Notes under the pieces: model-generated
The model's input: only the letters and a program-made list of their open reading frames with translations
Told to the model about the DNA's origin: nothing
Database searches by the model: none
Source of the DNA: an uncultured delta proteobacterium
GTDB lineage: Bacteria > Desulfobacterota > Binatia > UBA9968
Reading direction: 5' to 3'
DNA length: 64,000 bases
NCBI GenBank assembly: GCA_963840855.1
Contig: CAWJBB010000050.1
Location: 1 to 64,000 of the forward strand
Translations under genes and position numbers: made by a program
Shown: in pieces, positions 40,471-44,081 of the stretch
Numbering within the stretch: the first letter of the stretch is position 1
How the letters are laid out: the number at the start of each line of letters is the position of its first letter

Positions 40471-41563
40471 ATGAAGTATTGGATTCGCTTTTCCATGCTT
40501 GCCTTTCAAATCCTCGGCCTGCTGGCATTGACACACAGCCTTCAGGCCCAACCTCTTCGCAAAGCGACCTTCGAATTAAGAAATGAGATTGCCGTCCAAG
40601 TTCCCCCGGGAGCCAAACGAGTGCGGGTTTGGGCGGCGCTTCCGCAAGACGATCCGGCACAGCAAATCAAGAACCTCAAGATCGAGGCGCCGTATCCTTA
40701 CCGGGTCGAGCTTGATTCCGAAGGCAGCAATGTGTTGTTCCTCGAGGCCGATGCTCCGAAAAGAAAAAGAATTAAAAATCGTCACGAGTTTCATTCTTAC
40801 GCGCTCGGAAGTGCGCAGTGGCGTGGACGCCAAAAAGGCAAAGCCGATTTCGGAAGCGGACCGCGTCCGGCTAGCCCACCATCTGCAACCCAACAAGCAC
40901 GTAATCATAGACGGAGACATCCGGAAGCTGGCGCTGGAGATCGTCGGCAGTGAACAGAATCCCGTCTTGGCGGCGCGCAAGCTCTACGACTGGCTGATAG
41001 AAAACGTGGAGTATTGGGTGAAAGATCCAAAGAACAAAAAGGCATCGCCTGTCGGCAGCACGACGTTCTGTTTGACTTTCCGCACCGGGAACTGCACCGA
41101 TTTCGAGTCGCTTTGGACGTCGTTTTCGCGCGCGATCGGAATCCCGACGCAGATCGTTTACGGCTCCTTTCTCAAACCGGACCTGATGGGGCAAAACCAG
41201 GATCAAAGCTATCACTGCTGGGCGGAATTCTACGCGCCCGGCTTGGGCTGGATACCCCATGACGTCGCGGTGGCTGATCTCTACGCCGGAGAGTTTCCGG
41301 TAAACGACGACAACGAGAAATTGGTTCGTCTTACGACCGCCGACGGCACCTACGGTCCCAACCCTGAAAAGGTCAACTATTACTTCGGCAATCTCGACGA
41401 ACGCCGCGTTGTCTGGTCGCGCAATCGAGACCTGACTTTAAATCCGCGCCAGGATGGAGAGCCGGTCAATGCTTTGCCCAAGGCATACGTGGAGATTGAC
41501 GGGAAAGAACATCCGGAAACCAAGGGGTGGGTGAGAAAGCTCACGTTTCGCCAGGTTGACTAG
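40471..41563 (+). CDS. Secreted transglutaminase-like protein, split by a +1 frameshift near 40760
   Basis: Signal peptide ORF 40471.. joins ORF ..41563 if one A is removed from CCGAAAAGAAAAAG; GNCTDF, HCWAEF and WIPHD triad. Confidence 0.82.
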
Positions 41564-41577
41564 CGAGGAACACCGCC

Positions 41578-42180
41578 ATGGAGAGACAAGCGCTCTCCGA
41601 AGAAATGGAGCGGACGCTCAAACTGCTCGCCGATCTCGAGGGCCTGCGCGGGCGAGACTGTAAACGCTGCGCCTCCGCGCTCTGCCATCACGAATCGTTG
41701 TTTAGTCTCAGTATGGGCTTTAAGAACGCCCCGCTGTGCTGCTCTTGCCTTGCGGCTGAGCTTGAGCGAGAGCCCGCGCAGCTGCGCGACGAGCTATGGT
41801 CTTTCGTAGTGCACCGGCCCTGTCACCGGGCCGGGTGGGCATGGGCCAATCGCGAGGAAGGTTACGATCCTGCCGCCCTTCCCGGATGCCTTTGGCCTTA
41901 CCCGCGAAAGGCGAGCGAGCGGCCTCGTGCTACCGAGTCAGCCGAAAGAGCTGGCGAGCCATGCGAGAGCGAAGCGTGGGACGCAGGCGATATGGCATGC
42001 GGCGATCTCGTCCTGGAGCTCCGCCTGCGCTTGCGCGCGATGAAACCCCGCCAGATATTGCGGATCACGGCGACGGATTCGGGCGCGCGGGAGGATATCC
42101 CGGCGTGGTGTCGCCTGACCGGACATGCGCTTCTCGCCGCGGCACACCCTCAATATTGGATTGAACGAAAGGAGGATTGA
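41578..42180 (+). CDS. TusA-like sulfur carrier with an N-terminal Cys/His-rich putative metal-binding domain
   Basis: CKRC..LCHH, CCSC, PCH, GC; C-terminal WDAGDMACGD...ATDSGAREDIPAWCRLTGH. Confidence 0.85.
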   Translation: MERQALSEEMERTLKLLADLEGLRGRDCKRCASALCHHESLFSLSMGFKNAPLCCSCLAAELEREPAQLRDELWSFVVHRPCHRAGWAWANREEGYDPAALPGCLWPYPRKASERPRATESAERAGEPCESEAWDAGDMACGDLVLELRLRLRAMKPRQILRITATDSGAREDIPAWCRLTGHALLAAAHPQYWIERKED

Positions 42181-42184
42181 AATT

Positions 42185-42547
42185 ATGGCCGGTAAATTTT
42201 GTGTCAGCCTCACGTCCGCGAAAGACGATCCCGATAAGGCTACGGTTGCCTTTGTCGTCGCCAACGCGGCGGTGGCGTCGGACAAGGAGACATTGGTTTT
42301 CTTGAGCACGGAAGGGGTACGGCTTTCTCAGCAGGCGTATGCGGACGACATCCGTGAGGAGGGCTTCGCGCCTCTGAAGGAACTCATGGAAAATTTTGTC
42401 AAAGCAGGCGGCCTGATCTACGTCTGCTCGCCGTGTTTTAAACGCCGCAAGCTCGACGAGGGAAAACTAATCGGCGGAGCCACGATCGTAGGCGGCGCGA
42501 AGCTCGTGGAATTTTTAAGCGACGGCGCTCCATGCATCACGTACTGA
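42185..42547 (+). CDS. DsrE/DsrF-like family protein
   Basis: DDPDKATVAF, VFLSTEGV and YVCSPC motifs; AGGAGG RBS. Confidence 0.88.
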   Translation: MAGKFCVSLTSAKDDPDKATVAFVVANAAVASDKETLVFLSTEGVRLSQQAYADDIREEGFAPLKELMENFVKAGGLIYVCSPCFKRRKLDEGKLIGGATIVGGAKLVEFLSDGAPCITY

Positions 42548-42560
42548 TGGGAAGTTTGAG

Positions 42561-44081
42561 ATGGCTGAAACCGACCGAGACTCCCATCGGCCCGACGTAA
42601 GCTTTGACGGGGGCGATCTCGACTGCGGGAGCGGCCTGCTGCTGCTCATTCGGAAACACATCGATCCTCTCGCTCGAGGACAGGTCCTTGAGGTCCGCTC
42701 GACCGAGCTGTCGGTGGAGCAGGATTTGCCGTCCTGGTGCCGGCTGACCGGAAATGAGTTGATTTCATGGACTCGCAATGCAGGCACGTGGAGCTTTTTA
42801 GTCTGCAAGGGATCGCTGGCCGAAAAGAGTGAGTCTCAGTCGCGTGCCCAATCTCGGCCCGACGCCGAGAGAAAAATGGACGCGGCACGGGTTTCCGAGC
42901 GGCGGTCGAAGCCGGCTTCGACTCCCGAGATAGCGCCGCTATCGGTCATGGGAATCGGCAGCTGGCCGCGACCGCGCTGGATGCTCCAGGCCATGCACGA
43001 GCATGTCGAAGGGCGGCTCGGCGAGGAAGAGTTCCAGGCGACCGCCGATGACGCCGTGCGGCTTGCCGTCGAGGCCCAGCTGCGGTCAGCGGTGGATGTT
43101 GTCACCGACGGAGAGCAGCGCCGCGACAACTATGCGAGCTTTGTCGGCGGGCTGTTGGAAAATTGCCAGCTTATCCCGCTCACGGATCTTTTGCCGCTGG
43201 TCGATGATCCGGAGGAGTTCGAGAAAGAATTGCTCTCGTTGGATGTGCCGGCCAGTGAAGTCCGCCACCCCGCGGTTTTCGGCAAGCTGAGAAGGAGAAG
43301 GCCTATCGCCGCACATGAGCTTGAATTTGTCCGGACGCTTACCGACAGGCCGGTAAAAATCGCTCTGCCGGGACCTTACCTCCTTACACGGATCATGTGG
43401 ATGGAATGCATCACCGATAAAGCCTACGGCAGTCGCGAGGAATTGGCCGGGGACATCGTGCAGATCCTGCGCGAAGAGCTTCACGATCTGCTGTCGGCGG
43501 GCGCGGCTTTGGTTCAGTTTGATGAGCCGGTGTTGACTGAGGTCGTCTTTACCGGCGCCAAAAACAGCCGCAGTTTCATGTGCGGCGCGCTCAGCGAGAA
43601 AGGCAGCGCGGAACATGAGCTTGCCTTCGCGCGGGAACTTATCAACCAAGTCGTTGACGACGCGCCTTTGGAGCGCACCGCCATTCACATATGCCGAGGC
43701 AATTGGACGCGCGACGAAAGCGCCGCACTGAGCGGCGATTACCACCCGCTTGTGCCGACGCTTAAGGCCCTCAAAGTGGGCAATTATTTATTGGAGCTCT
43801 GCACGCCGCGCGCCGGCGAGATCGAGGCGCTGAAAGAGCTTCCCCAGGATCGACGTATTGGCATCGGGCTCGTCAATCCCAAAACAGAGATCGTCGAGTC
43901 TTTGGAAGAGATTGTCGCAAAGGCGAAAAGCGCCGCTGACCTTTTCGGTGCCGACCGTATTTTCCTCAACCCCGACTGCGGCTTTGCAACGTTTGCGGAC
44001 AATCCGGTTTGCTCCGCTCGTCTCGCCGAGGCAAAACTCACCGCCCTAGCGCGCGCCGCGGAGATATTGAAGGCTCGATAG
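42561..44081 (+). CDS. TusA domain fused to a cobalamin-independent methionine synthase-like (Meth_synt_2) catalytic domain
   Basis: FDGGDLDCG...DLPSWCRLTGN; IGSWPRP, TDGEQRR, PGPY, QFDEP, HICRGN, LE and NPDCGF (Zn ligands). Confidence 0.88.
   Translation: MAETDRDSHRPDVSFDGGDLDCGSGLLLLIRKHIDPLARGQVLEVRSTELSVEQDLPSWCRLTGNELISWTRNAGTWSFLVCKGSLAEKSESQSRAQSRPDAERKMDAARVSERRSKPASTPEIAPLSVMGIGSWPRPRWMLQAMHEHVEGRLGEEEFQATADDAVRLAVEAQLRSAVDVVTDGEQRRDNYASFVGGLLENCQLIPLTDLLPLVDDPEEFEKELLSLDVPASEVRHPAVFGKLRRRRPIAAHELEFVRTLTDRPVKIALPGPYLLTRIMWMECITDKAYGSREELAGDIVQILREELHDLLSAGAALVQFDEPVLTEVVFTGAKNSRSFMCGALSEKGSAEHELAFARELINQVVDDAPLERTAIHICRGNWTRDESAALSGDYHPLVPTLKALKVGNYLLELCTPRAGEIEALKELPQDRRIGIGLVNPKTEIVESLEEIVAKAKSAADLFGADRIFLNPDCGFATFADNPVCSARLAEAKLTALARAAEILKAR

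Follow-up and report, generated by a model that had tools for sequence, protein, structure and literature searches.

Enzymes with the fold of MetE are not restricted to methyl transfer: epoxyalkane:coenzyme M transferase, a Zn enzyme of the MetE family, alkylates a thiol that is not homocysteine. Core methionine synthases such as MesD consist of a single MetE-type barrel without the folate half in which the Zn and Ser/Glu/Asp sites are kept, and MesD relies on a dedicated partner, MesX, that is encoded next door (Price et al., 2021, PMC7857596). The second substrate of MesD is still unknown according to that account. Among sulfur carriers, adjacent dsrE and tusA genes encode the DsrE3A-TusA pairs of sulfur oxidisers, which transfer thiosulfonate or persulfide sulfur (Liu et al., 2014, PMC4175335; Tanabe et al., 2024, PMC11094781), and YeeE-YeeD (TsuA-TsuB), going by the title of its structure entry, combines a TusA-fold protein with uptake of an inorganic sulfur anion. 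Here we describe a locus that encodes TusA, DsrE and MetE-like domains in a 64,000-nucleotide (nt) stretch of contig CAWJBB010000050.1 from an uncultured member of the Binatia (the whole stretch is called the window below). Four co-oriented genes at positions 40471-44081, all on the + strand, encode a transglutaminase-like protein, a Cys-rich TusA, a DsrE with a CSPC motif and a fusion of TusA with a MetE-like barrel. The last three form a conserved unit, and we lean slightly towards the view that it works as a persulfide relay supplying a Zn enzyme whose substrate is a homocysteine-like amino acid, a role that would differ from ordinary methionine synthesis.

The original prediction, made from the DNA letters of the window, had described the four genes as a candidate undescribed sulfur-relay system, and open reading frames (ORFs) and Pfam confirm the layout, motifs and domains that it listed. 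The spacing between the genes is 14 nt after 41563, 4 nt after 42180 and 13 nt after 42547, and the motifs DMACGD, DLDCGS, VCSPCF, HICRGN and PDCGF were all found in the translations. The first gene matches Transglut_core (PF01841; 75.9 bits, cut-off 23, E 3.5e-21). The 200-amino-acid (aa) product of ORF 41578-42180 carries TusA (PF01206; 41.8 bits, cut-off 28.6) in its C-terminal third (residues 135-188), and the 120-aa product of ORF 42185-42547 matches DsrE (PF02635; 53.8 bits, cut-off 22.7, E 2.7e-14). The 506-aa product of ORF 42561-44081 contains TusA at residues 27-83 (34.3 bits, cut-off 28.6) and Meth_synt_2 at residues 234-482 (111 bits), and the N-terminal MetE half was not significant in the same Pfam search (Meth_synt_1, 17.1 bits, cut-off 27). 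The features of the locus are as follows.

40471..40761, + strand: N-terminal piece of the transglutaminase-like gene, frame 1, with a signal-peptide-like start (ORF 40471..40953; the piece ends ...LEADAPK)
40759..40762, + strand: A-run with one A more than close relatives, site of the frameshift (from the sequence and the relatives' contigs)
40760..41563, + strand: C-terminal piece of the transglutaminase-like gene, frame 2, with Transglut_core (PF01841)
41578..42180, + strand: free sulfur carrier, with a Cys-rich N-terminal domain (residues 1-105), a disordered linker and a CG-type TusA domain (Pfam and structure model)
42185..42547, + strand: DsrE-like protein of 120 aa with C81-x-P83-C84, codons 42425-42436 (PF02635)
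42561..42830, + strand: TusA arm of the fusion, residues 1-90, with active Cys22 at codon 42624-42626 (Pfam and alignment)
42831..42935, + strand: variable linker of the fusion, residues 91-125 (poor conservation, low model confidence)
42936..44081, + strand: single (beta/alpha)8 Zn barrel of MetE/MesD type (Pfam, NCBIfam, alignment and fold search)

A conserved tusA-dsrE-fusion unit with a MetE-type barrel

Among species-representative genomes, relatives of the fusion protein turned up in at least 573 stretches. The best 80 of these show a flat 60-68% identity to the window protein across phyla, and come from Burkholderiales and other Proteobacteria (among them Xanthobacter, Reyranella, Aquabacter, Nitrospirillum, Bordetella, Duganella, Paraburkholderia and Pigmentiphaga), Planctomycetota, Terriglobia, Rokubacteria/Methylomirabilota, Binatia, Dehalococcoidia, Armatimonadetes and Pedosphaera; judged by record titles, most of the carriers are heterotrophs from soil. 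The 120 best matches in a protein collection were nearly all about 506 aa long, with identities down to 66% and in most cases both Pfam domains, and their source names were automatic MetE names or 'sulfurtransferase TusA family protein'. In a sample of 301 genomes of the window's phylum, the fusion occurred in four, the window's own genome included. Since identity is flat across phyla and the distribution is patchy, the data suggest that the fusion operon is an accessory unit that moves horizontally.

Synteny was surveyed in these 80 loci, 60 of which extend at least 4 kb upstream of the fusion gene. A DsrE gene was present upstream in 60 of the 60 (63-83% identity) and a free TusA gene in 54, while the transglutaminase-like gene was found in five, once on the opposite strand. 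DsrE was directly upstream (<250 nt) in 43 of the 74 loci with a flank of at least 500 nt. The conserved unit is therefore tusA - dsrE - (tusA::metE-core), and chance adjacency is excluded by the conserved synteny. Thus synteny and fusion are both retained in other genomes, as is the CG motif of the TusA arm (79/80), and the predicted system stands as a conserved and apparently undescribed unit of tusA, dsrE and the fusion. Its fourth proposed member does not stand: the transglutaminase-like gene, rare among the loci and frameshifted in this assembly, is an occasional neighbour, one of several interchangeable envelope-side genes and not part of the core. When longer Rosetta-stone fusions were sought, the sole finds were an ABC-ATPase run-through (P0121) together with a full MetE.

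The closest solved chain to the barrel of the fusion is 3RPD (E 2.9e-26), which is MesD (Price et al., 2021, PMC7857596), and MetE and 3RPD were at the top of a fold search with the fusion model. In the alignment with 3RPD, the Zn ligands H376, C378, E412 and C473 fall on its own ligand positions, and S134, E185 and D321 on its chain positions 25, 76 and 191; all seven residues are invariant in 20 of 20 sequences. By a constant numbering offset of +3, we infer that the latter three correspond to Ser22, Glu73 and Asp188, which bind homocysteine in 3RPD (PMC7857596). In the wider set, HxCRGN and (P/S)DCGF were each present in 79 of 80 loci, and the motifs of the Zn site and the Ser/Glu/Asp site in 76-79 of 80. 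Because the residues of the homocysteine site are intact, the substrate of the barrel is probably homocysteine or a close four-carbon amino acid. In this respect the fusion differs from epoxyalkane:coenzyme M transferase, whose thiol substrate is not an amino acid.

The fusion thus has the single barrel, the His/Cys/Glu/Cys Zn ligands and the Ser/Glu/Asp amino-acid site by which core methionine synthases (MesA-D) are described in PMC7857596, and it shares fold and catalytic motifs with the C-terminal barrel of MetE (TIGR01371). It lacks the two-barrel architecture of about 750 aa of full-length MetE, as there is no N-terminal barrel. Identity to MesD is about 22% over the structural alignment, and unlike MesD the fusion has its own N-terminal TusA arm and family-specific inserts with an invariant FMC341 motif; it would likewise depend on a partner encoded next door, but this partner would be a TusA/DsrE relay instead of DUF1852, and no methyl source is evident. 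Arm and barrel are joined by residues 91-125, which have no conserved columns and for which the AlphaFold model (20-sequence alignment, mean predicted local distance difference test (pLDDT) 70) gives 10-residue means of 34 and 33 over residues 91-110. This is as expected for a flexible tether.

These features raise the question whether the protein is a fifth kind of folate-independent core methionine synthase, in which TusA and DsrE deliver the methyl group, help to make it, or protect or load the enzyme. We consider this unlikely. Both the Zn and the homocysteine site are intact, and the best NCBIfam matches are to methionine-synthase models, but all nine of these matches are below cut-off, the best being NF003317 with 160.5 bits against 406, and the full-length model TIGR01371 gave 80 bits against 929.95, with its best stretch covering only model positions 517-607. 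Seven of ten fusion-bearing genomes tested lack full-length MetE and are therefore dependent on cobalamin-dependent MetH, which was found in all ten; the other three hold MetE and MetH besides the fusion. MesD relies on its dedicated partner MesX (PMC7857596), whereas a MesX-type gene (DUF1852) was not found among the neighbours in the 80 loci and PF08908, the MesX family, was absent from five of five fusion-bearing genomes, though 14 control genomes were silent as well. No methyl source or corrinoid protein is linked to the fusion. Rfam gave no match in the window at gathering score, and in 11 related loci there was none near the operon, the only matches being two tRNAs and a fluoride riboswitch far away; therefore no S-adenosylmethionine (SAM) or cobalamin riboswitch ties the operon to methionine. 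In Binatia (5/60 loci) dsrE and the fusion are divergent to metY-metX-metW, which would suit a methionine synthase, but these loci are one lineage and count as one observation. The patchy distribution, with four carriers among the 301 genomes of the phylum sample, speaks against this reading too, and TusA/DsrE, as well as the rhodanese of the sister clade described below, have no obvious role in methyl transfer. The earlier suggestion that the locus does not serve ordinary methionine synthesis fits the presence of MetH in all ten genomes, of MetE in three, and scores far below the NCBIfam cut-offs. The same prediction had suggested that the TusA Cys may act as alkyl acceptor or as sulfur donor, with organosulfur dealkylation or metalloid detoxification among the conceivable roles.

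Putative sulfur carriers and a sister clade with OsmC and rhodanese

Our preferred reading, a persulfide relay that feeds the Zn enzyme, draws on the carriers themselves. In 79 of 80 loci the fused TusA arm carries D-C-G-x-G, with Cys22 as active Cys, and Cys60 is a second invariant Cys. Among 64 neighbouring ORFs for the free TusA, 61 have W-x-A-G-x3-C-G; the exceptions are one apparent frameshift and two false hits. The window encodes the long form of free TusA, which was found in eight loci and whose N-terminal domain (residues 1-105) has seven invariant Cys and one invariant His (C28, C31, C36, H38, C54, C57, C82 and C104); the active Cys of the TusA domain is Cys141 (codon 41998-42000). 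In the model, pLDDT is about 90 in both domains and below 50 in residues 108-125. The N-terminal domain is small and helical and gave no fold match in the PDB, while the TusA part matched E. coli TusA (3LVK_B, template modelling score 0.83 by target, 30% identity), with the YeeD chain of the YeeE-YeeD thiosulfate-uptake complex also among the top matches. This operon, however, has no YeeE-type membrane protein, and the transporter, if any, is of the PhnCDE type of ATP-binding cassette (ABC) importers.

Two loci from metagenome-assembled genomes (L038, ~3373-3981; L079, ~222-827) have an in-frame stop in their long-form TusA ORFs, which in L038 sits exactly at the conserved Trp of a C-L-W-P motif; sequencing error, a pseudogene or recoding are possible. 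In L047 an ORF that closely follows the fusion gene but is read from the other strand (7554-8309, - strand) fuses TusA to a SufU-like sulfur-acceptor domain (46 bits, below the cut-off of 92.5), and a similar ORF is present in L074.

In the DsrE-like protein, C-x-P-C (C81, C84) is invariant in 59 sequences. Its closest solved chain is 3MC3, a homologue of DsrE3A from the pair in which thiosulfonate passes from DsrE3A to TusA (PMC4175335), and C81 aligns to the first, active-site Cys of this chain. The two systems thus share adjacent dsrE and tusA genes and this Cys. They differ in that the window DsrE has Cys-X2-Cys where DsrE3A has Cys-X7-Cys (PMC4175335), which places it outside the DsrE3A subgroup as described there. 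DsrE3A genes adjoin dihydrolipoamide dehydrogenase or Hdr-like genes, as far as that description goes, whereas none such occurred in the 80 fusion loci. The TusA domains here are of C-G type, no Hdr-like, lipoate-binding or Dsr genes lie nearby, and the acceptor is MetE-like.

The nearest TusA-less relative that we found, in genome G175, has 43-44% identity in the barrel, and its gene is followed by genes for an OsmC-like protein and a tandem rhodanese. We surveyed this arrangement in 80 metagenome loci (L095-L174). OsmC was encoded downstream in all 64 loci with at least 700 nt of downstream sequence and rhodanese in 54 of the 56 with at least 1500 nt; DsrE, TusA, the importer and met genes were in none of the 80. 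Sister-clade proteins keep the Zn ligands, the Ser/Glu/Asp residues and the FMC motif. A tree was built from 32 selected rows, namely 13 of the fused type, 7 from the sister clade, 10 paralogues and 2 MetE. In it, support is 100/99 for the fused clade and 99/98 for the sister clade, and the two join at moderate support (91/74), apart from MetE C-terminal barrels and from other core paralogues. Two related enzyme clades are thus each wired to sulfurtransferases of unrelated folds, which is hard to explain without carrier-bound sulfur chemistry. The sister clade is in itself a large group of 388-aa core MetE-like proteins with a conserved three-gene operon (L088 6861-9386 and L095-L174), and records from Binataceae name its members 'cobalamin-independent methionine synthase II family protein'.

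From the domains and conserved residues, the synteny, the breadth of occurrence and the rhodanese-linked sister clade we arrive at the following proposal, in which the sulfur species, the direction of transfer, the substrate and the product are inferred. Sulfur, as a Cys persulfide or thiosulfonate, would pass between the free CG-type TusA and the CxxC-type DsrE and would then be loaded on Cys22 of the TusA arm, which the flexible linker of about 35 residues tethers to the Zn barrel. The arm would present this sulfur to the Zn site, where a homocysteine-like amino acid would be bound. In the sister clade, rhodanese and OsmC would supply the sulfur in place of TusA and DsrE. Beyond this general scheme, a carrier-dependent sulfhydrylation that is independent of pyridoxal phosphate (PLP) could be envisaged, to which we give a tentative standing well short of even chances. 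Here the Zn site would activate the arm persulfide as nucleophile toward an activated homoserine, the resulting TusA-S-S-homocysteine intermediate would be resolved by thiol-disulfide exchange, for example with the CxxC pair of DsrE, and homocysteine would be freed, so that the unit would serve accessory sulfur assimilation. The converse, transfer of sulfane sulfur onto Zn-bound homocysteine, is equally compatible with the data. We favour the homocysteine-forming version because it uses the chemistry of the family, alkyl transfer to a Zn-bound thiolate, which is established for MetE and is also the type of reaction of epoxyalkane:coenzyme M transferase. This version also fits the divergent arrangement with metY-metX-metW in Binatia, and we count the TusA-SufU-like fusion in L047 in favour of the relay.

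Several observations weigh against the relay that we propose. Firstly, the active-site motif of E. coli TusA is C-P-x-P, whereas in both TusA domains here the Cys is conserved but followed by Gly, not Pro, and sulfur carriage is assumed from family membership. Secondly, the operon has no conserved gene for a cysteine desulfurase or another source of sulfur, and the link to met genes is confined to Binatia. Thirdly, the PLP-dependent Cys/Met enzyme family PF01053 was found in five of five fusion-bearing genomes tested, hence no gene absence points to a missing homocysteine route; as MetH was present in all ten genomes tested, the fusion is nowhere the sole candidate for either step. The importer found in 16 of the 60 loci (see below) is closest to a hypophosphite/phosphite binder and not to a known sulfur binder. 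The sister-clade loci are close kin (77-95% mutual identity) and amount to one further lineage, not 80. Lastly, the AlphaFold model of the fusion is mediocre, with pLDDT below 50 around Cys22 and in the family-specific inserts.

The same carriers and cysteines could also serve to buffer or detoxify reactive sulfur, either by passing excess persulfide to homocysteine or another thiol, or with the TusA arm as a redox sensor that switches a homocysteine-metabolising enzyme. The OsmC-type thiol protein in the sister operon would fit such a role, as would a glutathione S-transferase encoded downstream in L008, a redoxin encoded upstream in L009, and the patchy, transfer-like distribution typical of accessory stress genes. 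We nevertheless judge this improbable, since the neighbourhood holds no conserved gene for a sulfide:quinone oxidoreductase, a persulfide dioxygenase or a regulator that senses persulfide, only one of the 60 loci has a CsoR-type repressor, and the importer argues for acquisition, not disposal. The gene for this single CsoR-type, metal-sensitive repressor flanks the operon of Reyranella soli (L066) at 2351-2656; another flanking ORF (7960-10137) appears by eye to encode a multicopper oxidase-like protein.

Importer, variable neighbours and assembly quality

Sixteen of the 60 loci contain genes for a PhnCDE-type ABC importer (for example L066 3553-5991, and 15 other loci). In Proteobacteria these genes separate dsrE from the fusion, and in Rokubacteria-like loci they immediately precede tusA. 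The permease is above the PhnE cut-off and the binding protein above that of the phosphate/phosphite/phosphonate subfamily. The binding protein, encoded in L066 at 3553-4428, matches the hypophosphite binder HtxB with E 2.4e-74 over 261 aligned residues. The positions of HtxB W52, N128, F158, R178 and D206, ligand residues as given for HtxB and PtxB by Bisson et al. (2017, PMC5700983), are occupied by W, S, H, R and D in every one of the 16 binding proteins. The Trp and the R178-D206 pair are thus kept, whereas Ser and His, as in PtxB, stand where HtxB excludes a third oxygen. This mix resembles the uncharacterised 'hybrid' class of HtxB/PtxB in PMC5700983, with the difference that here the binding protein sits in a sulfur-carrier operon.

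Such an importer could imply that the unit processes a small imported oxyanion in place of sulfur from the cell, whether phosphite or hypophosphite or, by capture on cysteines, selenite, arsenite or sulfite. The location of the importer genes, the HtxB match and the residue mix all speak for this, as do the genes for PhoU_div (DUF47) and a PHO4-family phosphate transporter that lie directly upstream of the operon in Duganella levis (L048 601-2248). However, the importer is absent from 44 of the 60 loci, and the window's genome has no close HtxB-like homologue, its best relative having 30% identity. No PtxD or HtxA is linked either: a 2-hydroxyacid dehydrogenase beside four operons of Burkholderiales, considered as a candidate PtxD, proved to be GhrA-like (E 1e-86) and not a phosphite dehydrogenase. 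Selenium-type matches of the importer's binding protein and of the sister operon's OsmC-like protein and rhodanese were weak, and every one was below cut-off. Moreover, an oxyanion substrate leaves the conserved homocysteine-site residues unexplained. It therefore seems distinctly unlikely that oxyanion processing is the function of the unit, and the bolder reading, in which a persulfide oxidises the P-H bond of imported phosphite or hypophosphite, is very improbable.

Other genes take the place of the importer or flank the unit. In 11 of the 60 loci, two proteins without Pfam or NCBIfam match are encoded between dsrE and the fusion (for example L040 3788-5939, and 10 other loci); the first, of 181 aa, is a membrane protein that has CxxC within a predicted helix, and the second is a 530-aa secreted protein that is anchored C-terminally. 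A META-domain protein precedes tusA in L006, and ORFs at this place in L008 and L012 are of the same size. In the window, the operon is followed at 44365-47624 by a tandem pair of glyoxalase-family genes and by genes for an SBP_bac_6 binding protein and for an Amidohydro_2 enzyme. These, together with an isochorismatase and a pirin near the operon, were treated as unrelated as they did not recur in the 80 loci, the sole recurrence being one amidohydrolase match in L071. Further downstream, at 48467-51148 on the - strand, an 893-aa protein combines DUF4062, novel STAND NTPase 1 (292 bits) and a C-terminal FGE-sulfatase domain (SUMF1-like), an unusual architecture that might belong to a defence or signalling NTPase. 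A scan for promoters and terminators gave 0 promoter-like and 9 terminator-like elements, against 5.1 +/- 2.2 of the latter in shuffles, and was not used as evidence. Contigs of metatranscriptome run X15 align to parts of 41274-43461 at ~87-98% identity, which does not show transcription.

The transglutaminase-like gene of the window is split over two frames, with frame 1 running from 40471 and homology resuming in frame 2 from 40760; the break falls in the A-run at 40759-40762. Intact homologues in L059 and L013 read through this junction. The frame-1 piece is 55-62% identical to their N-terminal parts, and the frame-2 piece is 77% identical to L059 over 265 aa; identity to L013 is 61%. Contigs of close relatives from three DNA runs of three studies (soil, permafrost and bog metagenomes by label) cover the site, and all four of them (one from X1, one from X5, two from X8) are without one A at 40758/40759. 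The window's genome (G000; 7.1 Mb in 93 contigs, 94% complete, 8.3% contamination) also has metH split over two adjacent ORFs (C74:20942-24494) and its sole PF01053 gene, for the PLP-dependent Cys/Met enzyme, in two adjacent pieces (C80:23072-24218). Because the relatives' contigs lack the extra A and these two genes are split too, the frameshift is likely an assembly error, a strain-specific frameshift being the other option, and the three split genes suggest that indel errors are common in this assembly.

Significance for sulfur and methionine metabolism

In a search of the main texts of openly accessible literature, we found no description of the TusA-MetE fusion, its operon or the OsmC-rhodanese sister operon; further MetE-like families, this one perhaps among them, may be listed in the supplementary tables of PMC7857596. 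The original prediction had not seen the frameshift, the intact residues of the homocysteine site, the frequent HtxB/PtxB-like importer or the rhodanese-linked sister clade. The operon is widespread yet apparently undescribed, and while all of its parts belong to known families, its function may be new.

MetE-fold core enzymes are a current puzzle, to which the fusion adds a large and tightly conserved clade with sulfur-carrier partners. The vague label '5-methyltetrahydropteroyltriglutamate--homocysteine methyltransferase' can be replaced by a testable hypothesis on the entry of sulfur into homocysteine and methionine metabolism. Known clients of TusA/DsrE relays are tRNA thiolation, molybdenum cofactor synthesis and dissimilatory sulfur oxidation, and the proposed relay would extend the list beyond these. 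The recurrent link to a 'hybrid' HtxB/PtxB-type importer is a second question raised by the operon. Since carriers such as Reyranella, Duganella, Xanthobacter, Aquabacter, Paraburkholderia and Pigmentiphaga are in culture, genetics are feasible. If the proposed function is true, soil bacteria of many phyla would gain an accessory route from sulfane sulfur or thiosulfate into methionine biosynthesis, with a previously unknown PLP-independent formation of the C-S bond of homocysteine.

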